Below, piece by piece: positions 18,254 to 37,985 of a DNA stretch of 64,000 bases. How positions within the stretch are numbered: the stretch's first letter is position 1; each line of letters starts with the position of its first letter. Source of the DNA: Deltaproteobacteria bacterium (GTDB lineage: Bacteria; Desulfobacterota; Syntrophorhabdia; Syntrophorhabdales; JANXAF01); contig JAOADT010000001.1 of assembly GCA_026417175.1 (NCBI GenBank), positions 38,918 to 102,917 of the forward strand, read 5' to 3'. A program made the translations under genes and the position numbers. The notes under the pieces are model-generated. The model was not told where the DNA came from and did no database searches. It saw nothing but the letters and a program-made list of their open reading frames with translations.

Positions 18254-19951
18254 TTAACTTGATTTAAGTGCTTTCAAAACCTCCTTTTTCTCAATTAAAA
18301 TCTCTGAAATCTTTTTTTCATCCTTCTCTCTTTCAGCAAATGCCAGTCTTTCAGTAAGCATTTTAAGCTTTTCTTTCATAGCACTTTTTTTTGTGTATTT
18401 TATGAAATCTTCTATAATCTTTCTTTTTGCGTCTTTTTCTAATCTCTGTGCTTCAAAGACACCGGAAACTACAAACTCTCTTATATCTTCATTTTCCAGT
18501 CTAAACAGATATCCATTTAAATCAAAAACATCTCTCTCCATCTTCGTCGCAAAGAACTCTTCCATCAGTCTTTTTAAAGTACCATCTTTTATGTAATCAA
18601 CGACTTCGCGTAACCCGGAACCATATGCGAGTTCTGGATCGTCAAGAATTGTCCCTATTAACATTTTATTCACAGGAGGCAAAATTCTTTCTTCTTCCTT
18701 AAATTCAATATTTTTTGATTTTCCCTCAATCTCATCCCAGAATATATGTTCTTCTACCCCAGTCAATTCAGAAATTCTTTTTACATATAACCTTTTGTGC
18801 ACATTATCCCTCATTTGCTCTATGTACGGCATAACTGTCCTGATAAAAGATAGTTTCTTTTGAACAGTTTCCATACCGTACTTTTCTTTATGGTACTCAA
18901 AATAGTACTCAATGATGGGCATCCTTTTCTGGATAAGAGCAGAAATACCTGAATAGCCGTTTTTTCTCGCAAATGTATCTGGGTCTTCATTTTGAGGTAA
19001 AAGAACAATCTCCCCATTCACGCCATTTGCGGAAAATGTATCTATGGCTCTCAATGCACTCTTTATTCCAGCTTCATCAGAATCGAGCATAAGTGTGATA
19101 TTCTCGGTGTAATTTTTAAGTTTCTTAATTTGCTCTTCCGTAATGGCTGTCCCAAGGGATGCAACAACGTTCTTTATCCCGCAATTGTAAAGGGAGATCA
19201 TGTCAAAGTATCCTTCTACAATTATGGCAAGATTTTTGTCCACTATATCTCTTTTTGCCTTTTCCAGCCCAAAAAGTACGCTCCGCTTTGAAAAAACCTG
19301 CGATTCTGGAGAATTTATGTACTTTGGTAGCCTATCCTTTTCTATGCTTCTACCGCCGAATCCTATTACCCTTCCATTTACATCATAGATGGGAATTACA
19401 ATCCTTCCTCTAAAAATATCCTGTATCTCCGTACCCGTTATTTTTAAGATCCCCGTTGAAAAAAATACGTCTTTAGGGATTTTACAGCTTGAAAAAAACT
19501 CACTTATGTTCTTCCCACTAAAACCTAGTTTAAACTTGTCTATTGTTTCGTTATCAATGTCCCTTTCTCTCAAATACCTTAAGGCAATCTGACTCTGTTT
19601 TAAGTTTTTATGATAAAACTCTGCAAGTTCAGATAGCGCATCATAGATCGCAAAAGTTTTTACTTTCCACTCCTGTACGGGAATCCCATACTCCTTAGAC
19701 AAACTTTCGATAGCATCATGAAAATCCATGTTTTCATACTTCATTACAAAGCTTATAACGTTACCGCCTGTTTGGCAGCCGAAACAGTAAAATAACTGTT
19801 TTTCAGGACTCACGGTAAATGATGGTGTCTTTTCTTTATGAAAAGGACACAATCCTACAAAGTTCCGACCGGTCTTTTTTAGCCTCACATATCTCGATAT
19901 GAACTCCACTATATCGACCTTCTCTAAAATCGTATCGACTGCTGTTTTCAT
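18254..19951 (-). CDS. dnaG: DNA primase DnaG
   Basis: 565 aa. Zinc-ribbon [30 protein letters not shown] and a TOPRIM region ([11 protein letters not shown]). Confidence 0.95.
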
Positions 19952-22260
19952 GTGAGTTCAACTACAGTTATCCCCGGATTTTTTTCATCTAGTTTAAAAT
20001 TTGAAACATATTTAGACTGGGAGAGATACTCTCTAACCTTTAACATGAGCTTTCCGGTACCAATGCCGTGTAAAATCGTAACCTTGTTTACGCCGTTTAA
20101 GACTGCTCTGTCCATGAATCTATCCAAACACTCAATAGCTTCTTCTACCTTCATGCCCCTTAGATTCAATTTCCACACATCCACCTTCTCTGATGTTACT
20201 TTCACCCCTGTAGTTTCATTTGTTACTCTTTCTTCAACCCGGTCTATCTTTATAAGTTTCTCCTTACCTATTCTTGTTCTTATATTTCCTATAACAACTT
20301 CACATTCTCCGGATGAATCTTCTAAATCTGAAATATAGCCCACGCTTCCTAAGTTTTTAATCTTTACAAAATCCCCGACTTTAAGCGGTTTGTCTTCTTG
20401 TTCTTTTTTATCAATACCTGATTCCCTCTTTACCTCATTCAAGATCTCCTTGGCCCTTTTTACTGAAACTTTTTCTTTTTTGGAAACTTCTCTTTCTATC
20501 TCCCTTATCCTTTCGTCCAGTATTTCGATTTTATTTTTATACCTTTCTTCGAATCTTTTTATTATCTCTTCCTTTTTTTCTTCAATTCTTCTGAGTTTGT
20601 TTTTTAGACTCAATTTTACCTGAAGAATCTCTTCCCTTTCTCTTGCCAGTTCCTCTTCCTTTTTTCTTAACGCGTCAAATATACTATACATCATATACTC
20701 CTGCTCACCCAAATATCTGATACTTTTCTCCAATATGGAATCAGGAAAACCTACGTTCTTTGCAACATTCAGTGCATTACTCATGCCAACCGTGCCATAT
20801 GTGAGTTTATAGAGAGGAACCATCCTTACCGGATCATATTCACATGCTGCATTTTTTGCGAATTCTTTGGTAAACCCATAGCCTTTGAGATGGCCTAAGT
20901 GTGTAGTAACTACTAGCTTGCATCCTTTCTCTGCAAAAGCGTCCATTATACCCATGGAAAGTGCTGATGCTTCCTGAGGGTCAGTTCCTCCTCCGATCTC
21001 ATCTATCAAAATCAGTTCACCGCCGCTCGATTCTTGGTAAATATTTTTGATGGTGATCACATGAGAGGTAAAGCTACTTAGATCCTTGGAAAAGTCCTGC
21101 TCATCACCAACGAGAGCGTAGATTCTCTTATAAAGAGGGATCTTAGGATTTATACTTGCGGGGATAAACATACCTGAGTACGCCATGAGCAAAAGTAACC
21201 CAATTGTTTTCAGTGCAACTGTCTTACCGCCGGCATTTGGTCCACTAATTATGAGAACTTTTTTTTCTTCTTCTAAAATTATGTCTATAGGAACGGTAGC
21301 ATCACCTTTGTATGTCCTCAAAAGAGGATTAACTGCATTTTTGATGTACAAATCACCATTTTCTGTCACTTCTGGCCTTACACAGCCGAAGTCTATTGAA
21401 AAGAGCGAGAGACCACAAAAGAAATCTACTTCTTTCACGACTTCCAAGTGTCTATGTAATGAACCGAGATAGGTATTAACGTATGAAGTTAATTCTCTGA
21501 GAATCCTTTCTTCCTCCTCCTTTTCCCTCTTTTCCAAAACATTTATCTCGTTGTTCAGACTTACACATTCAATAGGTTCAACAAAGGAAGTCTTTAAAGT
21601 ATGTGAGTAATCGTGAACAATTCCGTCTATAGCCTGATTGAAGTTGGGTTTCATGGGAAGAACGTATCTTCCATTCCGTATAGTAATGTAAGTATCCTGA
21701 AGTAGACTTCTAAATCTATCGCTCTCCATGAGCTTTTCGAGATATTTTTTTATTTTTGTTCTTTTTACATGGAGCTCTCTCCTTATTTCCAAAAGTTCGT
21801 AAGAAGCACTGTCTTCAACAAAGCCTTCCCGGTTTATCGTTTTTTTTATTTTTCTTTCAACCTCTGTGAGAGGATTAATAATTCCCAATATGTATGTCAA
21901 ATACCTACCTTTTTTAGGAAGCTTTTTTAGATAAGAGATTAAACCCTGAACATAGCTTAAAAAATCTTGAAGTAGCAAAAATTCTTTTGGGTCTAATACA
22001 GAATTTCCAACAGAAAGTCTTTTAAGGACGTCTCGTATATCCGGAATACCAGCTAAGGGTGGTTTTCCAAACTGAGTTATAACATCGTAAAATTCTTGCA
22101 AGATATCCTGTCTCTCTTTTATCTTCTCGAGATCGTAAAAAGGTCTAAGGTTAACGAGATCATCATCCGCATAAGAAGTCAGTAAGTATGGTTTTACAAG
22201 ATTTAAAAGCTTAAAAAAATCTAAATGATGTAAGGTATTATCAGGCATATTGTGCTTCAA
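19948..22260 (-). CDS. mutS2: MutS2 endonuclease (MutS-related protein with Smr domain)
   Basis: 770 aa. Walker A GPNAGGKT and a C-terminal Smr domain (LNLRGMKVEEAI...ILHGIGTGKL). Confidence 0.92.
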   Translation of the reverse strand: MKHNMPDNTLHHLDFFKLLNLVKPYLLTSYADDDLVNLRPFYDLEKIKERQDILQEFYDVITQFGKPPLAGIPDIRDVLKRLSVGNSVLDPKEFLLLQDFLSYVQGLISYLKKLPKKGRYLTYILGIINPLTEVERKIKKTINREGFVEDSASYELLEIRRELHVKRTKIKKYLEKLMESDRFRSLLQDTYITIRNGRYVLPMKPNFNQAIDGIVHDYSHTLKTSFVEPIECVSLNNEINVLEKREKEEEERILRELTSYVNTYLGSLHRHLEVVKEVDFFCGLSLFSIDFGCVRPEVTENGDLYIKNAVNPLLRTYKGDATVPIDIILEEEKKVLIISGPNAGGKTVALKTIGLLLLMAYSGMFIPASINPKIPLYKRIYALVGDEQDFSKDLSSFTSHVITIKNIYQESSGGELILIDEIGGGTDPQEASALSMGIMDAFAEKGCKLVVTTHLGHLKGYGFTKEFAKNAACEYDPVRMVPLYKLTYGTVGMSNALNVAKNVGFPDSILEKSIRYLGEQEYMMYSIFDALRKKEEELAREREEILQVKLSLKNKLRRIEEKKEEIIKRFEERYKNKIEILDERIREIEREVSKKEKVSVKRAKEILNEVKRESGIDKKEQEDKPLKVGDFVKIKNLGSVGYISDLEDSSGECEVVIGNIRTRIGKEKLIKIDRVEERVTNETTGVKVTSEKVDVWKLNLRGMKVEEAIECLDRFMDRAVLNGVNKVTILHGIGTGKLMLKVREYLSQSKYVSNFKLDEKNPGITVVELT

Positions 22261-22273: not shown

Positions 22274-22720
22274 TCATCCAGATAGCCTCTTTAGCACCAT
22301 TTCACTTAGCTTCTTTCCATCGATTCTTCCAGGATATTTTTCCATGATGAATTTTATGACCTTGCCAGCCTCTTTTCTGTCTTTAGCGCCCACCTCTTTG
22401 ATCCCTTCGAGAACAGCATTTTCAATTTCTTCCTCACTAAGAGGGCGAGGGAGTAAATCTTCGAGGATTTTGAGTTCTTTTTCTTCAGCTTCTACAAGGT
22501 CTGTTCTTCCCCCTTTTTTAAAACTCTCTATAGATTCATGGTGCTGTCTTATGAGAGTTCTTACAACGCTATAGAATTCCTCTTCGGTGAGGAGCCTTTT
22601 CTTCTCAACCTCTTTGTTTTTGATGTTCGTGATAAGTAACCTATAGACTGAAATTTTTTCCTTTTCTTTATTCTTTATTGCCTCTTTGAGCTTTTCTTCT
22701 ATTTCGGCCCTTAAGTTCAT
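22274..22720 (-). CDS. GatB/YqeY domain-containing protein
   Basis: 148 aa. Typical YqeY layout and the classical position directly after rpsU. Confidence 0.8.
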   Translation of the reverse strand: MNLRAEIEEKLKEAIKNKEKEKISVYRLLITNIKNKEVEKKRLLTEEEFYSVVRTLIRQHHESIESFKKGGRTDLVEAEEKELKILEDLLPRPLSEEEIENAVLEGIKEVGAKDRKEAGKVIKFIMEKYPGRIDGKKLSEMVLKRLSG

Positions 22721-23078: not shown

Positions 23079-25100
23079 ATGATAACATCTATTATGGTCC
23101 AGGATTTTCTCGAGTCTATTCTTGTAGTATTTGGAATATCTGCTTCCATAATTTACTTACTCGGAAAAATAAAACTTCCCTCCATAGTTGGTTTCCTCTT
23201 AGCCGGAACCATTATAGGACCTTATGGGATGGGGCTTATTCAAAGCTTAAAAGACGTTGAGATGATCGCAGAAATTGGAATTATCCTTCTTATGTTCACA
23301 ATAGGTGTTGAATTCTCACTGACTAAACTTTACGGGCTGAAGAAAGAAGTGTTCTTGTTTGGTCCCTTACAAATACTGCTTACAACAACTATCTCTGCCG
23401 TTTTGGCACACATCATTTTAGATATCCATTTGAGAAACGCCACTTTCTATGGGTTTGTCGTGAGTCTAAGTAGCACTGCTATTGTCATGAAACTTTTAGC
23501 TGAGAAAGGCGAGCTCAATACAAGACACGGGAAGATATGTGTGGGCATTTTATTATTTCAAGACATATGCGTAATTCCTTTGATGTTGTTGACTAGGCTT
23601 ATTTCAACTCATAACGAACAACCTTTAGGAGATTATCTGGTGGTTCTTCTTAAGTCTTTTTTGATACTCTTTGTAGTTTTTCTATTCTCTAGGACGGCCA
23701 TTCCCTATTTTCTTCATGAAATTGTCAAAACAAAAATTAGGGAGCTTTTTATCCTCGTAACAATCTTTGTTTGTCTTGGTACAGCCTATGTAACCTCCAA
23801 GTTGGGTCTTTCTTTAGCCCTTGGAGCCTTTCTTGCAGGAGTTATAATATCAGAATCGGAATACTCATCTCAGGCGCTCTCCGATATTTTGCCTTTTAAA
23901 GAAATATTTTCGGGCATATTCTTCATTTCTATTGGCATGTTACTGGATCTTGAGTTTTTAAAACTAAGGATCACAGATGAATTCGTGCTTATCTTGACAG
24001 TTATTTTTATTAAGATTCTGTCAGTTGTTTTTGCAGTTTACCCCTTTGTAAAATCCTTAAAAATTTCTCTTAAGACAGGTTTTTCTCTCGCTCAGATAGG
24101 AGAATTTTCATTCATCCTTTCTTTTGCCGGAAGGGCGCTAGGTCTTATAGATTCACAAGAATACCAGAGCTTTATTGCAATCACCGTTGCTTCCATGTTT
24201 ATAACACCTGCAATATTGAGATACTCTCCTAAAATAGTTGATGAACTGGTAAAATTGAAGCTTTTCCACCATTTTGAAAAGGTGACCAGAATAAAGGACA
24301 GTGAAATCTCTGTGAGAAAAATGAATCACGTCATAATAATCGGATTCGGGCTAAATGGTAGAAATCTTGCCAGGGTACTTAAAGATTCCGGAATAAGTTA
24401 TGTAATCCTGGATCTAAATCCGGACACTGTTAGAAAATCAAAAAGAAAAGGGGAACCTATATACTATGGAGATGGAACAAGTTCAGAAATCCTTCGCAAG
24501 CTTGGAATCCTTTGGGCAAAGATACTTGTCGTAGCCATCTCTGATCCCACATCCACAAAAAGGATTGTGGAAATGGCTAGGACCGAAAATCCCAGAATTC
24601 ACATAATTGTTAGAACCCGTTACGTCTCAGATATAGACGAGCTTTTGAATGTTGGTGCGAACGAGGTAATCCCTGAAGAATTCGAAACATCTCTTGAGAT
24701 ATTTGGACGGGTTTTACATCATTTTGGAGTTCCGAGAAACAAGATACTGGAAACAATAGACCGTATAAGACAAGAGGGATACAAAACTCTACTTTTAGAT
24801 ACACCCCTAAAAACAAGGGTCGGCTTGGAGTGCACAATGGTGGAAGGTCTTGAAATGGATAGCTACATTGTGGAAAAGGATTCCTGGTTAAAGGGAAAAT
24901 CGATAAAGGCCATAAATCTCAGGGCAAAAACAGGAGCAACAATTATCGCCGTAAAAAGGGGTGAAGAAAACATTCTAAATCCAGACCCAGACCTTGTTTT
25001 GAATGAGGGTGACATAGTCGTTTATTTAGGTACAAAAGAACAAGTTACACTAACCTTCCATTTTTTAAGTGGAAGGCCCTCCGGACAGAGCCTGAGTTAA
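23079..25100 (+). CDS. CPA2-family monovalent cation:proton antiporter (Kef-type) with C-terminal RCK (TrkA-N / TrkA-C) domains
   Basis: 673 aa. About 12 hydrophobic segments, then VIIIGFGLNGRNLARVL (a GxGxxG NAD fold) and a TrkA-C-like C-terminus. Confidence 0.85.
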   Translation: MITSIMVQDFLESILVVFGISASIIYLLGKIKLPSIVGFLLAGTIIGPYGMGLIQSLKDVEMIAEIGIILLMFTIGVEFSLTKLYGLKKEVFLFGPLQILLTTTISAVLAHIILDIHLRNATFYGFVVSLSSTAIVMKLLAEKGELNTRHGKICVGILLFQDICVIPLMLLTRLISTHNEQPLGDYLVVLLKSFLILFVVFLFSRTAIPYFLHEIVKTKIRELFILVTIFVCLGTAYVTSKLGLSLALGAFLAGVIISESEYSSQALSDILPFKEIFSGIFFISIGMLLDLEFLKLRITDEFVLILTVIFIKILSVVFAVYPFVKSLKISLKTGFSLAQIGEFSFILSFAGRALGLIDSQEYQSFIAITVASMFITPAILRYSPKIVDELVKLKLFHHFEKVTRIKDSEISVRKMNHVIIIGFGLNGRNLARVLKDSGISYVILDLNPDTVRKSKRKGEPIYYGDGTSSEILRKLGILWAKILVVAISDPTSTKRIVEMARTENPRIHIIVRTRYVSDIDELLNVGANEVIPEEFETSLEIFGRVLHHFGVPRNKILETIDRIRQEGYKTLLLDTPLKTRVGLECTMVEGLEMDSYIVEKDSWLKGKSIKAINLRAKTGATIIAVKRGEENILNPDPDLVLNEGDIVVYLGTKEQVTLTFHFLSGRPSGQSLS

Positions 25101-25661
25101 GAGGTATAGCGCCTGGGCGTAAGAAGTCGGACAGAGCGGGAAGCATTCTTTACACTTATCACATTCTTTTAAAGCGATCTCAGGGATAAAACTTATCTCT
25201 CTTTTCACCCCGCTTTGAACAAACGATATGGCATATTTTTTCTTGACTTCAGAGCAGTATCTAACACATAGACCACACAGGATGCAGAATATAGGTTCCT
25301 TCCCAAATTTTTCTTCTTTTGCACCATATTCTTCTTTTAGTTTGATAAGTTCGGGAGATCCTGGCGCACGTGCAAGAAGAAGCTCCACTATAATCCGCCT
25401 TATTTTTTCAACCTCTGGACTCCTTGTTTTCACAACAAGCCCTTCTTCAACTGGGTAAAGACAAGAGACAACATAATTTTTTCTTCCCCTACTTTCAATT
25501 TCTACTGTGCATAGTCTGCAACCGCCATAGGGCTCAAGATCTTTATGGTAGCAAAGTGTGGGAATATCTATACCTTCCCTTAAAGCTACCTGAAGGATGG
25601 TCATACCTTTTTCTGCCTTACATTCCTTCCCGTCTATGGTTATATTCACTACATCTGACAT
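25065..25661 (-). CDS. [2Fe-2S]/[4Fe-4S] protein resembling the NuoG N-terminus (BamI-like)
   Basis: Start MSDVVNITIDGKE at 25661, 2 nt after the NuoF-like stop. Motifs CYHKDLEPYGGCRLCTVEI, CILCGLCVRYC and CDKCKECFPLCP. Confidence 0.8.
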   Translation of the reverse strand: MSDVVNITIDGKECKAEKGMTILQVALREGIDIPTLCYHKDLEPYGGCRLCTVEIESRGRKNYVVSCLYPVEEGLVVKTRSPEVEKIRRIIVELLLARAPGSPELIKLKEEYGAKEEKFGKEPIFCILCGLCVRYCSEVKKKYAISFVQSGVKREISFIPEIALKECDKCKECFPLCPTSYAQALYLLTQALSGGPST

Positions 25662-25663
25662 CT

Positions 25664-27313
25664 TTACTTCTCCTTGACTAATCGTGATTCGAACTCTTTC
25701 CAAAAGTATTTCAAAGCACTCTCCAAGGGAGATGAAGCTGTTCTTCCCAATGCGCACAGAGAAGCCTCTTTTTGAACATCGCAGATTTCTCTTATCGTTT
25801 CCACATCCTGATACGTGCCGGAACCGTCCTTTATCTTTTTGAGGAGTTTTCTTATCTGTCTTATACCCTCCCTACAAGGGACACACTTACCACATGATTC
25901 TGTTGATAGAAAATCCAGAAAATAAGAGACTAGTTCAAGCATATCATCTTTTTCGTCAAGAACAAGTAACCCACCAGCGCCAATAGGTGCTCCTAATTTG
26001 GCACATGCGTCAAAATCTAAAGGGGTATCTATTAGTTCCTTCGGAATTGATCCACCCATGGCAGACCCAAAATGAACAGCCTTTAAATCATTTCCGTTTC
26101 CAGTTCCTCCACCTAAGTCGAATACAATCTCCCTCAGACTCATCCCAAAAGGTACCTCAATCACTCCGGCATTTTTTATTCTTCCCGAAAGCGATATAAG
26201 CTTTGTCCCCTTGCTCCTCTCGGTGCCTATTTTCGAGTACCATTCAGCCCCATTTTCTATAATGAGGGGTACATTGGCCCATGTTTCCACGTTATTTAAA
26301 TTACTAGGTTTTTCGTAGATCCCGCTTACCGATGTCCTTATGTATTTGGGTCTAGGCTCAGGAATCTTTCCTTCGATCGACCTCATTAAAGCACTAGATT
26401 CACCGCTAACGAATATGCCTATATCCAGGTGAATCTCCACATCGAAGTCGAACCCGCTTCCCAATATGTTCTTTCCAATAAAACCATATTCTCTCGCTTT
26501 GCTAATAGCTGTTTCTATATTTTTTAATAAGTCTGGTGCATCATGCCTGGTATAGATAAATCCTTGTCTGGCCCCTATGGCATAAGCCCCAATTATTAGA
26601 CCTTCGAGAACTATGTGGGGATTGCCCCCGAGGATTGCTCTATCCATGTATGCACCAGGTTCACCCTCATGTCCATTAACGATCACATATTTGATGTCAC
26701 TTTTTGCGTTTCTTGTAGTCTCCCACTTCTGACCAGCAGGAAAGCCGCCACCTCCTCTCCCTCTTAAATTGGACTTCTTGATCTCCTCTAAAACATCAGT
26801 TGGAGACATTTGGGTTAGCGCCTTTACTAAAGCAGAATAACCTCCAAGTGCTATGTAATCGTCAATACTTTGGGGATCAATCTTTGTGTTATATCCGAGG
26901 ATAAGCCTAGTCTGTCTATTATAGAACGGTATATCCTTAAGGTGAGGGGTCTTCCCTACTTTTTCATCTTCGTAGACAAGTCTGTCAACAATTCTATTTC
27001 TCAATATGGTTTCCTCAATTATTTCTGTTGCATCTTTTTCTTTCACTTTAAGGTAACATATCTCTTCAGGATAAATGATTATACTTGGCCCCCAGGAACA
27101 CATCCCATGACATCCCGTGAGTTTGACCTTGATTTTTTCTTCAAGACCCTTTTTACCAAGCTCATCCTTTAGTGCGCTTGCAATCTTTTTTCCATCTTTA
27201 CTTGAACATCCTCCCCCGCCACAAACTGATATTATCCGTTCCGAAGAAGCCATTATAGACTGTACCCTATTTTTCAATTTTAAAAAGTCTTCATATGAGC
27301 TTATTCTCTGCAT
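25664..27313 (-). CDS. NuoF-like NAD(P)H-binding FMN/Fe-S flavoprotein with an N-terminal thioredoxin-like [2Fe-2S] domain (BamH-like)
   Basis: 549 aa. GRGGGGFPAGQKW (FMN site) and ESCGKCVPCREG ([4Fe-4S]). N-terminal CGGGGCSS...CHGMCSWGP. Confidence 0.9.
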   Translation of the reverse strand: MQRISSYEDFLKLKNRVQSIMASSERIISVCGGGGCSSKDGKKIASALKDELGKKGLEEKIKVKLTGCHGMCSWGPSIIIYPEEICYLKVKEKDATEIIEETILRNRIVDRLVYEDEKVGKTPHLKDIPFYNRQTRLILGYNTKIDPQSIDDYIALGGYSALVKALTQMSPTDVLEEIKKSNLRGRGGGGFPAGQKWETTRNAKSDIKYVIVNGHEGEPGAYMDRAILGGNPHIVLEGLIIGAYAIGARQGFIYTRHDAPDLLKNIETAISKAREYGFIGKNILGSGFDFDVEIHLDIGIFVSGESSALMRSIEGKIPEPRPKYIRTSVSGIYEKPSNLNNVETWANVPLIIENGAEWYSKIGTERSKGTKLISLSGRIKNAGVIEVPFGMSLREIVFDLGGGTGNGNDLKAVHFGSAMGGSIPKELIDTPLDFDACAKLGAPIGAGGLLVLDEKDDMLELVSYFLDFLSTESCGKCVPCREGIRQIRKLLKKIKDGSGTYQDVETIREICDVQKEASLCALGRTASSPLESALKYFWKEFESRLVKEK

Positions 27314-27324
27314 AGCCTTTCCTT

Positions 27325-27771
27325 TTATCCAATTTTCTTAAGTATTCCTTCTATATCATCAGGTTTTACATTTCCATATACTTCACCATCTATCTCTATT
27401 TCCGGCCCAGAAGCACAGCGTCCGGAACAGGAGGATAATTCTAAGCTAAACTTCATGTCAGGAGTTGAATCACCTACTTTAATCCCAAGGAGGTTTTCAA
27501 GTTTTTCTACAACTTCCCTTCCACCCCTTATATAGCAGGACACCCCCGAACAAACTTTTATCACATGCTCAGCTTTGGGTTTCAGGCTAAACGTTTTGTA
27601 AAAAGTTGCTATTCGCATCACTTCATTCACTGGAACAGACAATCTCTTACTGAGATAAAAAATAGATTCTCTAGGTATATACCCCTTTTCGTGTTGAACG
27701 TCCATTAACATCTCGATGAGAAAATTTCTTCTTCTGGAATACTTCTCTATGATGCTTTCCAAATAATCCAT
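27325..27771 (-). CDS. NuoE-like thioredoxin-fold [2Fe-2S] protein (BamG-like)
   Basis: 148 aa. CSGVSCYIRGG ... CSGRCASGPEIEIDG. Confidence 0.88.
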   Translation of the reverse strand: MDYLESIIEKYSRRRNFLIEMLMDVQHEKGYIPRESIFYLSKRLSVPVNEVMRIATFYKTFSLKPKAEHVIKVCSGVSCYIRGGREVVEKLENLLGIKVGDSTPDMKFSLELSSCSGRCASGPEIEIDGEVYGNVKPDDIEGILKKIG

Positions 27772-27774
27772 AGA

Positions 27775-28527
27775 TCAACTCCCTACTTGTGTCTCTAGTT
27801 TCACAAATCCTTCTAATTCAAGATTTTTTAATGCTTTAAGAATCTCCTTTTCGTCAATGCCTACCCTTTTTGACAATTCTCCGTATTCTGAAATTCCTTT
27901 TCTTTTAGCATCAACTATAAGCCCCATAGTTATTTTATCGAAAATCATTTTTTCGATAATACTATTTATCTCAGGGCTTTCAAAATATTCGTCAATTTTT
28001 CCGATATTATTCCCTTGGAACCTGAGTCTCCCTCTTTCTACTAGTTTGATGTACGGAAGGAGATTCAGTACCACACCTAGCCTCTCATTCATAACTTCAT
28101 CTGGTAAACCTTCTTTCTTTCCTATGGGTCCAAGCTCTTTTATCTGCCGTATGAAATCTTGCATCACTTCTGCAAATCTAACACCTTCTGCAGATGAGAG
28201 AAATTCCATTCTGATTCTCTTTTTATCAATACCAATAAATCCGAAAATCTTTTTTAAAAGAATAATCATTCCATATGCGTGAATATTACCTTCCGTTGTG
28301 TAATGGCATTCTCCTGGAAGACATCCCACTACTATTATTCCATCCACTTTTTCTTTAAATGAATTAATCACGAAGGCAGGATCAACTCGTCCCGTACACA
28401 TAACACGAATCAGTCTTATATCTGGGGGGTATTGCAGTCTGGAAACTCCAGCCAGGTCAGCCGCTCCGTACCCTCACCAAAAACAAACAAAACCGATAAT
28501 CTTTGGCATATACTCAAAGGTATTCAT
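27775..28527 (-). CDS. MvhD-like (methyl-viologen-reducing hydrogenase delta subunit family) selenoprotein (BamF-like), with a C-terminal extension
   Basis: The track ORF starts at 28401 (MCTGRVDP), but the frame stays open upstream through a single TGA (28474..28476) to the ATG at 28527, which has AGGAGG 4 nt upstream. The result is [48 protein letters not shown], matching the MvhD N-terminal consensus C-x-W-C-x-Y-x-G-A-D-L-A-G with Sec at the second Cys. Confidence 0.85.
28439..28451 (-). promoter_or_regulatory. SECIS-like stem-loop downstream of UGA 28474..28476
   Basis: On the minus strand, CTGGA-GTT-TCCAG is 22 nt after the UGA. It is flanked by a possible outer helix GGGTA (28473..28469) / TACCC (28431..28427). 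Confidence 0.4.
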
Positions 28528-28535
28528 AGATCCTC

Positions 28536-31500
28536 CTAATCTTTTTCTCTTAAAGCTTCAATACCTTCTCTTATCTGAGTGTAAAGCTGGGTATCTGTAA
28601 AGTGCTTAAGCTGTATCGCATTTGTCGGGCATTTAGCGTTGCAAAGTCCATCTCCTTTACAGAGCACTGGATTAACTCTAGCTTTTTTTCCTCTTTCAGT
28701 TTCGTAAAACTCGATAGCGTCATATTTACAGACCGAAATACATGCGCGACAAGATACGCACTTTTCTTCATCGACTTCACATATGGCTCCCGAAGCCAAA
28801 ACGTAGTCTTTAGAAAGAAGTGTTAAAGCTCTACCTGCCGCTCCGTAAGCTTGATTTATCGCTTCATTTACATGTTTTGGATAGTGTGCCATTCCGCACA
28901 GAAACACTCCTTCTGCAGAAAAGTCTACAGGACGTAATTTCACATGGGCTTCTTGGAAGAAACCGTCAGGGTTGATCGGAACTTTGAAGAACTTTGAAAT
29001 CTGGGTATTATTTCTATGAGGAATCACAGCTGAGGCCAATACTAACATGTCAGCTTCGATTTCTAGTTCCTTCTTTATAACTCTGTCTACCACTTTTACG
29101 ATAAAACTTTCCTTTCCCTTGGACCCTTTAAATTCTACAGTAGGAGGAATGTCTAGGTCGTAACGGATGAAACGTACTTCTTTGTCCTGGGCTTTAAAAT
29201 AATAATCTTCGTTGAAACCATAGGTCCTCATGTCTCTGAAAAGTATGTATATATCCTTCTCAGGGTATTTCTCTTTTAGCTTCAGGGCATTTTTTACTGA
29301 ATGGTTGCAACATATTCTACTGCAGTAATTTCTTTCCTCGTTTCTTGATCCAACGCATTGGATCATTACAATGGTCCCTACATTTTTGATCCTTTCATCT
29401 TCCCTAGCTAGAAGTTCTTCGAATTCAAAATTTGTTACAACAAAATTGTTCTTTCCATACATATATTCTTTCGGTTTATATTCTTCTGCTCCTACCGCTA
29501 CTATTGCAACTCCGTGCTTAATTGTACTAATTCCGTCCCTTGTTCTTATCCTTGTGGAAAAGTTCCCCACGTATCCTGTGACATCGAGTATCTCCGAATT
29601 TGTCCTCACATGGATGTTAGGATGCGAAAGCACCTGGCCTATAAGTTCGTCTGTAAAAGAGCGAACATCAAACCCATCAAGAGTGAAATAAAGTTTCTTG
29701 GCATTTCCTCCAAGAGTCTCCTCTTTTTCCACAAGGTATACCTCGTAACCTTGTCTTGCTATACTTAAGGCAGAGACCATACCGGCTATTCCACCGCCAA
29801 CAACGAGTACTCTTTTATCTATGGGAAGTCTCAATTCCTCAAGAGGGGCTAGATACACAGCTCTAGCTACAGCCATTCTGACTAAATCCTTTGCTTTCTT
29901 CGTTGCACGCTCCTTTTCCCTTGGATGCACCCAAGAGCAATGTTCCCTTATATTTGCCATTTCAAAGTAATACTGGTTAATTCCGCCTTCTCTTAGGGTA
30001 TCTCTGAAAAGCGGTTCATGGGTCCTTGGAGTGCAGGCCGCAACAACAACTCTATTCAATCTTTTCTCCTTTATCGCATCTGCTATCTGTTTTGCCGCAT
30101 CTGTAGAGCATGCAAATATTGACTCCTGTGCATGTACCACGTATTTAAGTCTTGAAGCAAATCTTACCACCTCTGGTACGTTTACAACCCTTCCTATGTT
30201 TGCTCCGCAATGACATACAAATACTCCCACACGAGGTTCTTCTTGAGTTGTATCCCTTTCTTCTGGGTAAAGTCTCTCCTTAGTCAGTAGATTTCTACGT
30301 GTGCCGAGTATTTCCCCGCACTGACTTGCTGCACCGCTTGCAGATACAACAGATTCAGGTATATCCATGGGACCTTGAAACGCACCACTCACAAATATTC
30401 CGGGTCTTGAAGTTTTTATAGGATTGGAAGGAGAAAATTTTGAAAACCCGTACCCATTTAATTCGATGCCAAATTTCTGAGCAAGTTCTGTATATCCACT
30501 TGGTGGCTTGAGCCCAACAGAAAGTACCACCATATCAAAATCCTCTTCTTTTACCCCGTCCTCTGTAGCATATCTTATCCTAAGATTCTTGGTGTCTGGA
30601 ATCTCACCCTCCAACGAGACATAACTTCTTATGAATCTTACCCCTTTTAAATTCGATGCTCTTTGGTAAAACCTTTCAAAGTCTTTTCCAAATGACCTTA
30701 TATCGTTGTGGAATACCACACATTCGCAGTCAGGTTCATGCTCCTTTGTAAGAATCACTTGCTTCTGTGTATAGGCGCAACACACGGAGGAACAATAGGG
30801 AGAGCCAGGTTCTTTTAATGTTCTAGATCCTACACACTGAATCCATGCCACTTTCTTTGGATGCCTTTTGTCAGACTTTCTTAGGATCTCTCCTTCGTAT
30901 GGACCGGTAGAGCAGAGTAATCTTTCGTAGTCAAGGCTTGTCACGACGTTATCGTAAACCCCGTAGCCAAATTCAGTTGTAAGTGAAGGATCAAACACTT
31001 CAAAACCAGGAGCTAGAATAATGGCTCCAACTTCTATCTCTTCCCTTTTCGGTTTTTGAAAAAGATCTATAGCCTTGTTCTTGCAAACACCCGCGCATAT
31101 GGAGCACTTCTCTCCACTTAGATACAGACAGTTATCCCTGTTTATGTAAGCAACAAGTGGAACGGCTTGAGAAAAATACACATGAATAGCCTTATTCTTT
31201 GAAAGCTTCTGATTGTATTCGTCCTCAACTTTTATTGGGCAGAACTCGGTACACATACCGCATCCGGTACATCTTTCCTCATCAATGTATCGCGGTTTTC
31301 TTATAAGGCTCACTCTGAACTCGGGAAATTCGCCATCAACCTTCTCTACTTCCGTATATGTGAGAATCTTAATGTTTGGGTGTCTACTACACTCGACCAG
31401 TTTCGGTGACTCTATACACATGGAACAGTCATTTGTGGGAAAGGTCTTATCAAGCTGTGCCATGTGACCACCTATGCCTGGAGCACGGTCAACAAGATAA

Positions 31501-31646
31501 ACTTTGAAACCAGAAGAGGCAAGATCTAAAGACGCTTGTATACCACTTATTCCTCCACCGACGACCATTATGTCGCCAACTTCTTTTTTTTCGAAATCCC
31601 TTATAAGTTGCAAAATTTTTTCTTTAGTGATTACCTCTCCGTTCAC
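28536..31646 (-). CDS. Double HdrA-like FAD/Fe-S oxidoreductase (BamE-like), all-Cys version
   Basis: 1036 aa. Two dinucleotide folds ([32 protein letters not shown]), several ferredoxin-type Cys clusters and a C-terminal 2x[4Fe-4S] motif (CVSCRACISVC, CKGDGLCNAKCP). Confidence 0.9.
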   Translation of the reverse strand: MNGEVITKEKILQLIRDFEKKEVGDIMVVGGGISGIQASLDLASSGFKVYLVDRAPGIGGHMAQLDKTFPTNDCSMCIESPKLVECSRHPNIKILTYTEVEKVDGEFPEFRVSLIRKPRYIDEERCTGCGMCTEFCPIKVEDEYNQKLSKNKAIHVYFSQAVPLVAYINRDNCLYLSGEKCSICAGVCKNKAIDLFQKPKREEIEVGAIILAPGFEVFDPSLTTEFGYGVYDNVVTSLDYERLLCSTGPYEGEILRKSDKRHPKKVAWIQCVGSRTLKEPGSPYCSSVCCAYTQKQVILTKEHEPDCECVVFHNDIRSFGKDFERFYQRASNLKGVRFIRSYVSLEGEIPDTKNLRIRYATEDGVKEEDFDMVVLSVGLKPPSGYTELAQKFGIELNGYGFSKFSPSNPIKTSRPGIFVSGAFQGPMDIPESVVSASGAASQCGEILGTRRNLLTKERLYPEERDTTQEEPRVGVFVCHCGANIGRVVNVPEVVRFASRLKYVVHAQESIFACSTDAAKQIADAIKEKRLNRVVVAACTPRTHEPLFRDTLREGGINQYYFEMANIREHCSWVHPREKERATKKAKDLVRMAVARAVYLAPLEELRLPIDKRVLVVGGGIAGMVSALSIARQGYEVYLVEKEETLGGNAKKLYFTLDGFDVRSFTDELIGQVLSHPNIHVRTNSEILDVTGYVGNFSTRIRTRDGISTIKHGVAIVAVGAEEYKPKEYMYGKNNFVVTNFEFEELLAREDERIKNVGTIVMIQCVGSRNEERNYCSRICCNHSVKNALKLKEKYPEKDIYILFRDMRTYGFNEDYYFKAQDKEVRFIRYDLDIPPTVEFKGSKGKESFIVKVVDRVIKKELEIEADMLVLASAVIPHRNNTQISKFFKVPINPDGFFQEAHVKLRPVDFSAEGVFLCGMAHYPKHVNEAINQAYGAAGRALTLLSKDYVLASGAICEVDEEKCVSCRACISVCKYDAIEFYETERGKKARVNPVLCKGDGLCNAKCPTNAIQLKHFTDTQLYTQIREGIEALREKD

Positions 31647-31667
31647 GTCTCTTTCCTCTTTTCTTTT

Positions 31668-32819
31668 TTAAGTTACTTCGTTTATTAACTCTGCCAAGTC
31701 CTTTATACGAAGCTTATCTTCGTAACCCATGATTAGCTTACTGTCTTCCAGCGCTGTTATGCAGTAAGGACAACTAGTCACAAGTTCCATAGCACCCAAT
31801 TTCACCGCGTCTTCAACTCTTATGTTAGAAAACCTTTCGTGTTTCTCGGTTTCGGCCCAAACTCTACCCCCTCCCATTCCACAACACAAGCTTGCGAGTC
31901 TATTCTCTGGAAGCTCCAGCATATTGACCCCATTTATTGACCTGAGTACCTCTCTAGGTTTTTCAAATATGTTACTGTGTCTTCCAAGGTAACAGGGATC
32001 GTGATAAGCGATATTTGCCACATAGTCTCTGCTGAGTTTTAATCTCTTGGACTCTATGAGTTCTTTCAAATACTCGGATATGTGTACAACCTCAAAATTT
32101 GCACCGAAATTAGGATATTCATTTTTGAAAGTGTAATAGCAATGTGGTGATGAGACGACTATTTTTCTTACCCCGAAGTCAATAAACTTTTTTAGATTTT
32201 CTTTGGCAAGCTTCTTAAAAACTTCTTCATTTCCCGTTTTCCTTATGCTTTCCCCACAACAACTTTCAGCCTCACCGAGAATCCCAAAATTCACCTGTGC
32301 CTTTTGTAACAGCTGTACAGTTGCTCTCGCAACGTTTCTGAGTCTCGGATCGTAGCACATATAACAGCATGTGAAATAGAGAACCTCCATCTTCTCCTCA
32401 AAAATCTTAACGTTTAGTCCTTCTGCCCACTTCGCTCTCTCCTTTGGGTCCTCATTAAATGGATTACCTTTAGAGATGAGGTAAGTAGCTATCTGTCTGT
32501 AAGTTTTTGTAGAGCTTGGAAATACATTGTAAGCAGTTGCCATTCTTCTTATGGCCACTATGTCATCAATCTGTCTCACATCCCTCGGACACAAAAGGAC
32601 GCATCTCCCACACGTGGTACATCTCCAAATGTCCTCTTTTTCAATCTCTGTGAGACCAAATACCGCATCTCTTATCAATCTTCTCATACTAAATACCCTA
32701 ACGCGATTCCAAGGACATACCGCATCACATTTACCGCACTGATAACAGTACTTTACCCTTTCCCCACCGTACTGTTTTATCTCATCAATTACCTCTTTAA
32801 AAGGCGCCACAATTTCCAT
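31668..32819 (-). CDS. HdrD-like Fe-S / CCG-domain protein (BamD-like)
   Basis: 383 aa. CYQCGKCDAVCP and CTTCGRCVLLCP, then the CCG motifs SCCGESIRK and LCCGMGGG. Confidence 0.85.
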   Translation of the reverse strand: MEIVAPFKEVIDEIKQYGGERVKYCYQCGKCDAVCPWNRVRVFSMRRLIRDAVFGLTEIEKEDIWRCTTCGRCVLLCPRDVRQIDDIVAIRRMATAYNVFPSSTKTYRQIATYLISKGNPFNEDPKERAKWAEGLNVKIFEEKMEVLYFTCCYMCYDPRLRNVARATVQLLQKAQVNFGILGEAESCCGESIRKTGNEEVFKKLAKENLKKFIDFGVRKIVVSSPHCYYTFKNEYPNFGANFEVVHISEYLKELIESKRLKLSRDYVANIAYHDPCYLGRHSNIFEKPREVLRSINGVNMLELPENRLASLCCGMGGGRVWAETEKHERFSNIRVEDAVKLGAMELVTSCPYCITALEDSKLIMGYEDKLRIKDLAELINEVT

Positions 32820-32831
32820 GTCTAACCCTCA

Positions 32832-33371
32832 TTACAACTCTTTCGCTACTTTTGCAATTGTATCCACGACTTTCTCAAGACCATGTCTTTTTAACAGAGT
32901 AGCTACAGATACTTGGAGTTCGTCGGTCGTATGTGGTTCCACCTCTACTTCCCTCTCGATGTATGTAAGGGCTCCCGAATGACATTCCTTTACACACATC
33001 GGAATGTCCGAATCTTCTCCTTCACATGCATCGCATTTAAATGGAAGACCAGACTCCGGATCTTTGAACGCATCCCTTGAGGGACAGGCTGCTGGACAGA
33101 ATTCGCATGTACCAAATTCTCGACCCCGGATAGTAAAAGAGTTTCTGGCGTTGCATTCAGCTTCAGTGTACTGACCTGCTCTGATCGCCACGTAGTTGTC
33201 CGCAAACTCATCGATTATCACCCGAATCCTCGATTTTGCAGGGTTCACACTTGAATATTTGGGGTTCGCGTGGACCTGTGAACATACAATCTCGCAGCAT
33301 CTACAACCATTGCACTTGTCCATATCAAATCTTATTTCCTTTATCTTCTTTTTTACTTTTTGTCCTTCCAT
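32832..33371 (-). CDS. 4Fe-4S dicluster protein (BamC-like)
   Basis: 179 aa. CNGCRCCEIVC, CEFCPAACP and CDACEGE..CVKEC. Confidence 0.8.
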   Translation of the reverse strand: MEGQKVKKKIKEIRFDMDKCNGCRCCEIVCSQVHANPKYSSVNPAKSRIRVIIDEFADNYVAIRAGQYTEAECNARNSFTIRGREFGTCEFCPAACPSRDAFKDPESGLPFKCDACEGEDSDIPMCVKECHSGALTYIEREVEVEPHTTDELQVSVATLLKRHGLEKVVDTIAKVAKEL

Positions 33372-33388
33372 GTCTTACGCTCCTTTAC

Positions 33389-35353
33389 CTATATTCCCCA
33401 AGGATACTTGTCTTTGTATTTTTCGTAGACATTTGGGACCTCGTCATTACCAGTCAAAATTCCCCTTTTCAAGAAATCTTCTGCCACGAAATCCAGATCC
33501 AGTTTTTTTAAAGTCTCAACCGTGGGAATGCCTTGCTTTGTCCATCCTTGATACTCGTAATAGCAGTCAAGAAGGATTTGTTCGTACTCGTGGTTTCTCA
33601 CTGCCCAATGGTCTTCCGGCGGTTTCTCATCCTCTCTCCTCATACCTCTTCGCACATTCAGTGCCCGAACGAGATTTCTATTTCTCTTATAAACTGTCCA
33701 AAGTTTTTCTTCATCGAACTCCACTCCTGTGATCACAGTTATAAACTCTGGGATGTTATGTATGTGGTATACGGTTCTTCCTCCGAATTGGCCCCTAAAT
33801 GAGGAGACAAAACCGCACAACCCGGTTGCATCATCAATGTAATGCATAGCCTCATTCCACTCTGTAATTGCACATGCCATTTCGATTGTAACCATTTCTC
33901 TTTTTTCCCACTCCAAGAACCATTTCTTAAATCTCTCATCCTTTGCAGCGATCCATCCCCTTACGAATTCTTCCCTCTCCTCTCTGGTAGGAAGGGGATC
34001 CTGAGGAAAAGATCCCTCTATCTGGGTTATATTCATCTTCTCCCCTGTGGCTATCATTAAGAAGTACGGAGGATTAAGTTTCCCTAGTTTTATCGGAACC
34101 TGTTCAAACTTCTTTGTTGTGTTATGATCGAAAGCCTCGGCTCCTTTTCCTATCTTACGGGCAGCCCAGTATACGCCATCTGCAAGAATATCCCCAATAC
34201 CTTCTCTTTTCACAATCTTGTCCAAGAAGTAAAAAAATCGACCTTTAATATCGTTTGGCATGCCGGGCAGATCGTTGTCTGTGAGTATCCCTGCTTCGTA
34301 AAGTTCCAGCGCAAACGCTATAACTTGAGGTGTTGTGTAAGAATCGAGGCCTAGATTTTGGGCTACACCTAAGATATCGTAACTGAAATCAAGTTCCTGA
34401 AAGGCTGCCATATGGTAAGTATCTTTGCCAAAACATTTGTAAGAAAATCTCTTTCTTCCCGGCCAAGATATAACATTATGACATCTCTTTGGACAATTAA
34501 AACAACCTGTTTGTCTATCTAAGTGATCGTATTTTATACGTGTAAATCTTTCTTCAATTTCAGGTGTCCAGTAACCTTTCCTTCTCACTCTTGCATTTCC
34601 CCAAGCAAAATTGTCATGATGAAAGCTATCGTCTTCGTCTACCGCCATCCAGTCACCAACGTGTGGGTTTTCAGCGATTTCTTTCCTGAGTCTATTTCCT
34701 AGTTCAAATGCTTTTTGAGGGTTTGCTACGTACAAATCCTTAGTTCCCTTTATGGCTATTGCCTTTACCCTCTTGTCACCCATTACAGCACCTGCCCCAC
34801 GCGCTGCACTCGCATGGCTGTGATCTATAGAAGCATAAAATACTCGGTTCTCCCCAGCAGGTCCGATTGCTGCAATTTGGAATCTATGCCCGAGTTCTTT
34901 TTTTAGTACTTCCTGTGTGTCATATGTGCCAAGACCTTTTAGATGACTCGCATCTCTTATCTCAACCTTATCGTCGCAGATATAGATGTACACTAACTTG
35001 TCAGCCTTTCCTTTTATTATGATCTTATCATAACCTGCGAATTTCATCTCCGGAGCGAAATAACTTCCCATCATAGTGTGTGCGTGGAGATTAGTTTGCG
35101 GGGAGAATGTATTTACTATCGTTCTATTGGCTCCTGGGATAGGAGTCCCACAGAAAAGACCTGCGCTGAATATAAGTAAATTATCTGGGGAAAAGGGTTC
35201 CACCTCTGGAGGAACTCTGTCCCATAGAATTCTATCCGCAGATCCCTGACCCCCAACGTAAAGCTCGAGCCATCTAGGATCAGATTCCACCTTTTCTATA
35301 TTTCCTGTCGAGAGATCAATCTCTAAAAAATATCCAGTTTCTCCGTATCTCAT
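33389..35353 (-). CDS. AOR-family tungsto/molybdopterin enzyme (BamB-like)
   Basis: 654 aa. MRYGETGYFLEIDLSTGNIEK..., GENRV, GAVMGDK. The AAGGAG RBS lies in the 13-nt gap after the IclR gene. Confidence 0.88.
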   Translation of the reverse strand: MRYGETGYFLEIDLSTGNIEKVESDPRWLELYVGGQGSADRILWDRVPPEVEPFSPDNLLIFSAGLFCGTPIPGANRTIVNTFSPQTNLHAHTMMGSYFAPEMKFAGYDKIIIKGKADKLVYIYICDDKVEIRDASHLKGLGTYDTQEVLKKELGHRFQIAAIGPAGENRVFYASIDHSHASAARGAGAVMGDKRVKAIAIKGTKDLYVANPQKAFELGNRLRKEIAENPHVGDWMAVDEDDSFHHDNFAWGNARVRRKGYWTPEIEERFTRIKYDHLDRQTGCFNCPKRCHNVISWPGRKRFSYKCFGKDTYHMAAFQELDFSYDILGVAQNLGLDSYTTPQVIAFALELYEAGILTDNDLPGMPNDIKGRFFYFLDKIVKREGIGDILADGVYWAARKIGKGAEAFDHNTTKKFEQVPIKLGKLNPPYFLMIATGEKMNITQIEGSFPQDPLPTREEREEFVRGWIAAKDERFKKWFLEWEKREMVTIEMACAITEWNEAMHYIDDATGLCGFVSSFRGQFGGRTVYHIHNIPEFITVITGVEFDEEKLWTVYKRNRNLVRALNVRRGMRREDEKPPEDHWAVRNHEYEQILLDCYYEYQGWTKQGIPTVETLKKLDLDFVAEDFLKRGILTGNDEVPNVYEKYKDKYPWGI

Positions 35354-36212: not shown

Positions 36213-37985
36213 TCAGAGGCTTTTCAAAACTTCCTCTAACATCCTTTCGAGTTTTGCCTCCTCCGTCTCATCCGCATATTTAGGAGGTAAAACATCTGGA
36301 AAAAACTGGAATATTCCTTTTAGGATCACCTCTGCATGAGGAGGACACCCGGGAAGATGAATACCTTTATCTTTATTATGAAGCTGACACATCCCCATAA
36401 ATATGTTAGTTTCATTGGGATTTATCCCTTTTCCCTCGTACGGACCGAGATATATATTTATCGGTTTTTCAAAGGGTCTATCTATGAGGAGTTTTTCAGG
36501 TTCTTTTGGATCTGGTCTTCTTAATTTATGAACCACAAAATGGAGATATCCTCTACATCCGGAACATGCCCCGTCGTAGTGAATCTTAAGGTTCATACCT
36601 CCTGAGAGATTAATCTCGGGCAATTTGAAGGGGCTTCTCACTTCTTCAACAGAAGCTCCGACAATCTTTATTTTTTCAGACTCTATCGGACCAAAACCCT
36701 GAATGTAAGCCAAAAGCACAGGCGGAGAATCCTTTGGATCAAGTCCCATTATCCTCATACAAGTCGCGTCCACAGCTACAGGGTTTTCCCCGGCTATTAA
36801 AAGATTCATGACTTTAGGTATACCGGAGACCGGTCCAAAGTCCTCCTGTCCTACAAGGCCATCGATAATAGTGAGTTTTGGTTTAACAAGATGATGAATA
36901 TTTACCAAATTCTGCCAAAGACCAAAGAAATGGGTCATGTATTTTTCAAGTGGTGGCATAGTGCCCTGTAGGTTTTTTACTGCCAGAGACACAACAGCGG
37001 CAAAGTGAAGCTTCATCACAGGAAGGCTAATTATCACATCAGCATCCAACAACGTTTTTGGAACTTTTCGAGAGGCCATACGTTTTTTGTAAGGAACGGG
37101 TAGCTCTACTGTTTCATCCGTGTTAAGATCGACTAGTTTAACTTTTCCGGGGAAAAGCTCCTCCAATTTATCGTACCCATAGATTTTGAACATTTTTGTC
37201 GTGGCGCTTCTATTTATGGAAGATCCTTCTGCCACTATTATCTTTGAAGCCGTGGGAAGAAGAAATGTTATCAAAGCTTTAACGAGTTTCAAGTCAGTCA
37301 CAACGCCACCTTTGTATTGACCCTCTAGCATTCCATGATCAGCAACAATATTAGGTTTTAAAACAACAGTTTGGCCTTTTTTTACATACTTTCTTATCCC
37401 ACCGAGTTTTTCAAAAAGATCTTTAACTGCCTCGTATATATCTTCCTCGGACTGCGCCGGGTTTACCTTCTGGATAACTACTGTTTCTGTCTTTCTGTAT
37501 GGCCTTATCTGTTTAAATTCTTTCAATCGGTCGAAATAGACCACGGTACTTAATTCAAGTTTATCTCTTTTTAACTCACCATCGATTATTTTCCTAAATG
37601 GGCGAAATCCGTATTCTAAAAGTAAGTTGTTTTTTTTAACGTCATTCTCATGTATGGTTGCGGACAGGAGACTATGTTCAGCAATTAGTCTATCAAAAGC
37701 ACTAAAAATTAAGTTTTTAGGATCATTACTTTCTGATACCCATATCTCCTCAATGTTGCTATTTCCCACATCAAGTATGATGAAACCAAAATCATCTTTC
37801 CCTTTCTTTATCTTGTAAACGGTAATGTCTTTACTTTTCGTCCACTTTGCCCATAGATAGTCAACGTAGTCCTCAGATATTTCTGGGATTTTAGAGTAAT
37901 AATCGAAAAGTGCTTTTTTAATTCTGCCTGTTAAATTTGTCTTTTTTAATGAAAGGTCTTGCATGCTCGAATCTCCTTCACTCAT
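36213..37985 (-). CDS. DUF362 domain protein with an N-terminal GNAT-like domain and a C-terminal Cys cluster
   Basis: 590 aa. The central GQTVVLKPNIVADHG...VAEGSS...VMKLH region is typical of DUF362. The first roughly 150 aa have a GNAT-like pattern (weak call). C-terminal CSGCRGY...GMCQ...GCPPH. Confidence 0.6.
   Translation of the reverse strand: MSEGDSSMQDLSLKKTNLTGRIKKALFDYYSKIPEISEDYVDYLWAKWTKSKDITVYKIKKGKDDFGFIILDVGNSNIEEIWVSESNDPKNLIFSAFDRLIAEHSLLSATIHENDVKKNNLLLEYGFRPFRKIIDGELKRDKLELSTVVYFDRLKEFKQIRPYRKTETVVIQKVNPAQSEEDIYEAVKDLFEKLGGIRKYVKKGQTVVLKPNIVADHGMLEGQYKGGVVTDLKLVKALITFLLPTASKIIVAEGSSINRSATTKMFKIYGYDKLEELFPGKVKLVDLNTDETVELPVPYKKRMASRKVPKTLLDADVIISLPVMKLHFAAVVSLAVKNLQGTMPPLEKYMTHFFGLWQNLVNIHHLVKPKLTIIDGLVGQEDFGPVSGIPKVMNLLIAGENPVAVDATCMRIMGLDPKDSPPVLLAYIQGFGPIESEKIKIVGASVEEVRSPFKLPEINLSGGMNLKIHYDGACSGCRGYLHFVVHKLRRPDPKEPEKLLIDRPFEKPINIYLGPYEGKGINPNETNIFMGMCQLHNKDKGIHLPGCPPHAEVILKGIFQFFPDVLPPKYADETEEAKLERMLEEVLKSL

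Follow-up and report, generated by a model that had tools for sequence, protein, structure and literature searches.

The gene on the minus strand at 27775..28527 of the window, by which we mean the whole stretch of 64,000 nucleotides that was analysed, is almost certainly bamF. It would encode the MvhD-like [2Fe-2S] adaptor of BamBCDEFGHI, with translation starting at 28527 and with the UGA at codon 18 read as selenocysteine (Sec) by means of a hairpin. The assignment was made by computation, and its basis is the reading frame, protein homology, the Sec/Cys pattern among relatives, RNA-level constraint on the hairpin, the Sec machinery of the host and the operon context. The host genome is a 2.15-Mb draft of 97 contigs with a GC content of 40%. 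For comparison we used 80 genomic loci that encode relatives, together with a syntenic metagenome contig (L095).

Selenocysteine is established in this protein family. A 2026 review places MvhD/VhuD (PF02662) among the prokaryotic selenoprotein families, gives the motif as CxxU, and lists VhuD with two Sec residues (PMC13188914). A 2026 cryo-EM preprint on the BCRII of Geobacter metallireducens reports Sec19 in BamF and describes the protein as an MvhD-type adaptor that is more than 100 residues longer than MvhD and has a winged helix (10.64898/2026.04.10.717634). The F1 [2Fe-2S] cluster of BamF connects BamGHI to the bifurcating FAD of BamE (10.64898/2026.04.10.717634). The genome paper of Desulfococcus multivorans describes a UGA plus a SECIS in mvhD and BamE (PMC5109826). 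A first-pass annotation of the window had pointed to Sec in MvhD-type proteins of Methanococcus (VhuD) and of the Geobacter Bam cluster, and the literature bears out both, the former through the CxxU family of the review (PMC13188914) and the latter through Sec19 of the preprint (10.64898/2026.04.10.717634).

Reading Frame and Gene Start

The minus strand reads ...GAT TAG GAGGATCT ATG AAT ACC TTT GAG TAT ATG CCA AAG ATT ATC GGT TTT GTT TGT TTT TGG TGA GGG TAC.... The only interruption of the frame opened by the ATG at 28527 is the TGA at 28476..28474. When TGA is translated as U, 28527..27775 yields 250 residues with U at position 18, and the second TGA is the stop (Table 1). The mechanical ORF list gives the gene as 27775..28401 with 208 aa, and the true start lies 42 codons upstream of that call. 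The 17 codons 5' of the UGA are open, have a Shine-Dalgarno sequence and an ATG at their start, and are homologous to MvhD N-termini. No Shine-Dalgarno sequence precedes Met43, the start of the called ORF. The next ATG within the restored N-terminus (Met7, 28509) also has none, and a product starting there would be shorter than every homologue. The first-pass annotation had proposed that an in-frame TGA at 28474..28476 hides the N-terminus and that the gene starts at 28527 with an AGGAGG over the stop of the HdrA-like gene. All of these coordinates are correct, and reading through the TGA restores the full MvhD/FlpD domain.

Table 1. Positions in the window of bamF, its decoding signals and the genes of the bam cluster.
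Feature	Position	Strand	Remark
bamBCDEFGHI cluster	25065..35353	-	profile matches; eight co-directional genes, bamF fifth
bamB	33389-35353	-	AOR-family enzyme, 654 aa
bamC	32832-33371	-	small Fe-S protein
bamD	31668-32819	-	HdrD-like CCG protein
bamE	28536..31646	-	double HdrA-like, 1036 aa, no in-frame stop; directly upstream of bamF
AGGAGG Shine-Dalgarno	28532..28537	-	4 nt 5' of ATG; overlaps bamE TAG stop (28538..28536)
bamF CDS	27775..28527	-	250 codons + TGA stop, Sec at codon 18
bamF ATG start codon	28525..28527	-	N-terminus agrees with full-length homologues in length and sequence (MSTE.FKP.I.GF)
In-frame UGA, codon 18 (U18)	28474..28476	-	motif C15-F-W-U18
Possible lower SECIS helix extension	28435..28455	-	C22-G42, G24-C40, U.U and G.A mismatches; weak
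Candidate SECIS apical hairpin CUGGA-GUU-UCCAG	28439..28451	-	5 bp, GUU loop; stem begins 22 nt past UGA, in codons Ala26-Gly-Val-Ser-Arg30
Internal Met43 (MCTGRVDP), false start of ORF callers	28399..28401	-	mechanical ORF list
bamG	27325..27771	-	NuoE/HoxE-like [2Fe-2S] thioredoxin-like ferredoxin; starts 3 nt past bamF stop
bamH	25664-27313	-	NuoF-like
bamI	25065-25757	-	NuoG-N-terminal-like

Homology of the Restored Protein

The product read through the UGA matches the Pfam FlpD (MvhD, PF02662) profile over its entire length (1-123 of 123) with residues 10-133 and scores 151 bits against a cut-off of 22.3. The ORF called from Met43 covers only positions 34-123 of the profile, with 91.7 bits, which agrees with the earlier claim that a start at 28401 removes the conserved MvhD N-terminus. 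The alignment to MvhD of Methanothermococcus thermolithotrophicus (5odc_D) scores 148.6 bits and begins at residue 5 of the bamF product. In the solved MvhD chains (5odc_D, 7bkb_F, 8rvu_F) the second Cys of CNWC aligns with U18, and in Cys-type BamF the second Cys of the N-terminal CxxC does so. Alignment to MvhD/BamF sequences had been proposed as a check, and it thus finds the restored N-terminus homologous, with U18 on the second Cys of CxxC.

All five Cys/Sec positions (C15, U18, C44, C69, and C74) are conserved relative to the MvhD structures. Among homologues C44, C69, and C74 are invariant or nearly so, and the pair Met43-Cys44 is nearly invariant. Full-length database relatives begin with M..E..F.P.I.GF.CNWCC and have the same length in this region as the restored bamF N-terminus. 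The six closest database relatives, with 53-65% identity to the query, are all recorded as 204-212 aa. The internal Met (MC[TS]G[RK]VDP) is also the recorded start of five of them (P0002-P0005, P0020), and the sixth begins a little further in; hence, gene callers have truncated all six in the same manner. The C-terminal extension of BamF comprises about 110 aa (residues ~140-250) and aligns with homologues that carry HTH_5/PF01022 matches. The extension of the bamF product itself has only sub-threshold matches to TrmB and HTH_24 (E 0.004-0.007).

Distribution of UGA and Cys Codons Among Relatives

At the codon aligned with U18, 66 related loci have TGA (36), TGT (21) or TGC (9), and TAA or TAG never occurs. 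This restriction is the signature of a Sec/Cys pair. In a search of 30 related genomes, most matches of BamF length carry exactly one in-frame TGA, and so does a BamF match of 66% identity in a genome of the same family. In the protein tree, the Cys-type genes form one group and are divided from the Sec-type genes by a single change (SH-aLRT 92), so the Sec/Cys contrast represents one evolutionary event and not many independent ones. BamF of the window shares a long branch (1.36 substitutions per site) with its one close relative, L095, and the two have only about 45-50% identity to other BamF. Path lengths in the protein tree put the gene of the window about 2 substitutions per site from the other Sec-type genes.

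The residue after Sec (codon at 28471..28473 in the window) is always Gly, Ala or Val in Sec-type BamF (WU[G/A/V]). A second, vicinal Cys (WCC) is found in 29 of 30 Cys-type BamF, and methanogen MvhD has CNWC-T/S. The vicinal Cys may be a compensatory change tied to the loss of selenium. Near-identical Sec-type bamF genes are found in metagenome-assembled genomes labelled as different phyla, for example Desulfobacteraceae (L049), Anaerolineales (L077) and 'Myxococcota' (L079/L083), which suggests either mis-binning or a bam cluster that has recently moved by horizontal transfer.

A broader evolutionary reading can be put forward tentatively, at somewhat below even chances. Sec may be ancestral in BamF, the whole cluster may have spread horizontally together with its unusually rigid SECIS within the coding sequence, and the extra Cys may be compensatory; the tree behind this reading is unrooted and the direction of the single change depends on the root. 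If Sec is indeed ancestral, the extra Cys would be informative on the chemistry of the Sec/Cys residue.

The Candidate SECIS Hairpin

The hairpin occupies +26..+38 counted from the U of the UGA and has G and U in its apical loop. The string CUGGAGUUUCCAG is present at the same register in all 38 Sec-type genes, with 5/5 pairs intact, as against only 3 of 30 Cys-type genes in which the hairpin is fully paired. The 15-nt core GCUGGAGUUUCCAGA is letter-for-letter identical in Sec-type bamF of at least six phyla, and the 21-nt RNA at the candidate SECIS, the putative target of SelB, reads CUGGCUGGAGUUUCCAGACUG. Codon usage within the hairpin of Sec-type genes is nearly fixed (GCU 34/34, GGA 37/37, GUU 35/37, UCC 37/37, and AGA/AGG 37/37), and the codon entropy over Ala-Gly-Val-Ser-Arg is 0, 0, 0.30, 0, and 0.41 bits. 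Entropy at all other conserved four- and six-fold degenerate positions in these genes is 1.3-2.4 bits. The Cys-type genes give 1.37, 1.47, 1.01, 0.85, and 1.97 bits for the five hairpin codons, with CGN coding for Arg in 29 of 30. Since synonymous sites should be saturated at a distance of about 2 substitutions per site, the invariance of the hairpin reflects selection at the RNA level.

Thermodynamic and family-based searches gave negative results. Over the 66 nt that follow the UGA, predicted folding is no more stable than in shuffles (z = -0.01). An Rfam scan of 28350..28560 with E up to 10 returned only noise (psbNH, NRON) and no SECIS family. Taken alone, the hairpin does not exceed chance, as 24% of the TGA triplets of the window are followed by a Watson-Crick hairpin with 5 bp or more, and such a hairpin appears in 19% of shuffles. 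The 32 distinct Sec-type sequences contain no compensatory covariation in the hairpin because the inner pairs never vary, and the RNA evidence therefore rests on invariance at synonymous sites.

Additional pairing around the hairpin was also considered. A 9-bp extended helix was placed on the alignment and rejected: its inner pairs are invariant, its outer pairs are inconsistent, and the RNAalifold consensus contains the apical hairpin only. The possible outer helix of the first-pass annotation is not conserved, for G24-C40 holds in 29 of the 32 distinct Sec-type sequences and the remaining outer pairs are inconsistent. A GGGUA/UACCC helix in the minimum free energy fold of the window sequence is not kept in relatives. 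The CTGGA-GTT-TCCAG hairpin itself had been placed correctly at 28439..28451, and its reading as a SECIS is supported by the synonymous-site constraint and the invariance in Sec-type genes.

Among the Cys-type loci of alignment A3 (e.g., L030, L044, L058), 20 of 30 have four of the five hairpin pairs. GGA, GUU, and UCC are commoner in Cys-type genes than expected at degenerate sites, and these genes could also form an alternative hairpin, CCGG-AGUUUC-CCGG. The four-pair hairpin may be a 'fossil' SECIS in decay, or it may simply follow from the codons for AGVSR.

One competitor to decoding as Sec is that the UGA is a real stop, the gene being either a 5'-truncated or split MvhD-like gene that begins at Met43 and has neither the first beta-strand nor CxxC, or a pseudogene. 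ORF callers give this model, the database entries of the closest relatives are annotated alike, and even when truncated the ORF reaches 91.7 bits against FlpD. It is nevertheless very unlikely. It does not fit the 17 open codons before the UGA with their Shine-Dalgarno sequence, ATG and homology to MvhD N-termini, nor the lack of a Shine-Dalgarno sequence at Met43. The 'break' is conserved as TGA only, in 36 or more genomes of several phyla, which decay would not yield, and the hairpin is under RNA-level selection.

Sec Machinery and Other UGA-Containing Genes

The genome encodes SelA (578.4 bits), SelB (382.6 bits), and SelD (367.8 bits), all above the cut-offs. It also contains a tRNA-Sec that scores 70.5 bits, above the Rfam cut-off, and has the anticodon TCA by ARAGORN.

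Some bacterial lineages reassign UGA, and selenium limitation permits near-cognate read-through. A near-cognate tRNA or a reassigned codon might then place Cys, Trp or Gly, rather than Sec, at the UGA of bamF. We consider this highly improbable. TGA is the stop of 11 of the 40 long frames in the window, bamF included, and UGA is thus not reassigned genome-wide; moreover, the full SelA/SelB/SelD/tRNA-Sec set is present, and the site is a Cys/Sec position of a listed selenoprotein family.

On contig 11, shortly upstream of where the window begins, locus L099 (37627-38202) contains a second MvhD-like gene, placed at 37813-38184, whose UGA and hairpin (GCUGGAGUUUCCAGG) are the same as in bamF. Where bamF has the winged-helix-like tail, the C-terminal extension of this gene product consists of a 2x[4Fe-4S] ferredoxin domain. 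This gene belongs to a second Bam-like cluster whose HdrA gene extends into the window. The HdrA-like paralogue at the left edge of the window has in-frame TGA codons at 1019..1017 and 2228..2226 on the minus strand, after ...FPTNECSI and ...VGIFVCY. A hairpin of 7-9 bp with an AGGU or GUG loop lies 12-15 nt downstream of each, and both are therefore probably Sec codons. The bamE copy adjoining bamF has no in-frame TGA. The selD gene (L097; contig 88, 9793-10701) likewise has one in-frame TGA (GAG-U-ASK), and the hairpin after it has a CGGGU loop, so selenophosphate synthetase appears to be a selenoprotein here as well. At the SelD site and the two sites of the HdrA paralogue, the hairpins carry G-U in the apical loop and lie 10-15 nt downstream of the UGA. 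All three are longer than the bamF hairpin, which is also farther from its UGA (22 nt).

It is hardly credible, even for a draft of 97 contigs, that the TGA is a misread or misassembled TGT or TGC of an ordinary Cys-type BamF. Independently assembled sequences of the closest relatives (L095, G001) and 35 others share this TGA, as does the second MvhD-like gene of the genome, and the site bears the Sec-type signature (WU-G, AGA for Arg, a perfect hairpin) and not that of Cys-type genes (WCC, CGN).

The bam Cluster

The genes around bamF were assigned by profile and structure matches. BamB matches BamB of G. metallireducens (4z3w_A) over its full length with 776.5 bits, whereas the next-best AOR scores 224.8 bits. 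BamC matches BamC of the same organism (4z3w_E) with 192.4 bits, likewise along its full length. Gene order is the same in the relative on the syntenic contig (L095). Judged by these matches, the cluster is bamBCDEFGHI of a class II (tungsten, ATP-independent) benzoyl-CoA reductase.

Two adjacent ORFs on the minus strand, 22274..22720 and 19948..22260, were considered as a formate dehydrogenase split at a Sec codon. This candidate was rejected, as they are separate genes for YqeY (148 aa) and MutS2. The MutS2 ORF contains Smr, encodes 770 aa and has a TTG start.

Predicted Decoding and Role of Selenocysteine

By sequence and homology, translation starts at the ATG at 28527 and is coupled to the end of bamE through the AGGAGG that overlaps the bamE stop. 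The ribosome would meet the UGA at codon 18, and the hairpin 22 nt downstream would expose its G-U-containing apical loop. Conservation and the machinery present suggest that SelB, carrying Sec-tRNA(Sec) made by SelA and SelD, binds this loop and delivers selenocysteine, so that termination does not take place. The predicted product has 250 residues and the motif C15-x-x-U18. By homology with BamF of G. metallireducens, the selenol would lie beside the [2Fe-2S] cluster, through which electrons from BamGHI (NADH/ferredoxin input) would pass to the bifurcating FAD of BamE. The selenol may cycle via a selenenylsulfide and in this way join one-electron and two-electron chemistry.

The first-pass annotation had described Sec as replacing a cluster-ligand-type Cys. 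In the preprint, Sec19 of G. metallireducens BamF is located beside the [2Fe-2S] cluster and is not among its ligands (10.64898/2026.04.10.717634). The wording therefore probably overstates the role of U18, which by this homology would neighbour the cluster. We found no explicit identity for the four [2Fe-2S] ligands of MvhD in the open literature, so the question of ligand or neighbour depends on one sentence of the preprint.

Significance of the Corrected Annotation

Standard gene callers cut bamF to Met43 both here and in its closest relatives. The CxxU motif is thereby lost, and the selenium requirement of an enzyme that reduces aromatic rings anaerobically is hidden. Correct annotation of bamF matters for predicting the dependence of anaerobic aromatic degradation on Se and W in uncultured lineages, and for the use of bam genes as environmental markers. 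The case of bamF is an annotation correction and not a discovery, because both the complex and the selenoprotein to which the gene is orthologous were already known, and nothing in it is conceptually new because Sec in BamF and MvhD/VhuD is established. Modestly new are the invariance of the 15-nt SECIS core across phyla, the possible fossil hairpin with four of five pairs in Cys-type genes, and the strict coupling by which Sec-type genes have WU[G/A/V] and 29 of 30 Cys-type genes have WCC.

Comparison With Known Systems

BamF of the window resembles that of G. metallireducens in several respects. The genes are in the order B-C-D-E-F-G-H-I, the protein has an MvhD domain followed by a C-terminal extension of about 110 aa, and the Sec of CxxU is at the equivalent position (U18 here, Sec19 there). 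It differs from the Geobacter-like group in the residue after Sec, which is Gly in the window and Ala in that group (L085). Unlike the G. metallireducens system, that of the window resides in a small genome (2.15 Mb, 40% GC) with a second Bam-like cluster.

Methanogen VhuD/MvhD belongs to the same fold family, with an alignment over residues 5-141, and BamF, like it, would act as a [2Fe-2S] adaptor that docks onto an HdrA-type bifurcating flavoprotein. Methanogen MvhD/VhuD, however, has only about 140 aa and docks hydrogenase or formate dehydrogenase, and VhuD is listed with two Sec residues whereas BamF of the window has one. Additionally, archaeal Sec decoding uses a SECIS in the 3'-UTR, while the candidate SECIS of bamF lies inside the coding sequence just past the UGA, as in bacteria.

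Like bacterial SECIS elements of the E. coli fdhF type, the bamF element is a stem-loop in the ORF past the UGA with G and U in the apical loop. The bSECISearch model of Zhang and Gladyshev (2005) reportedly places the apical loop 16-37 nt after the UGA, and the bamF loop, about 27 nt after it, falls inside this range. The bamF element departs from other bacterial SECIS elements in its very short stem of five invariant bp with a 3-nt loop, and in being conserved not only in structure but also in sequence, which is invariant across phyla.
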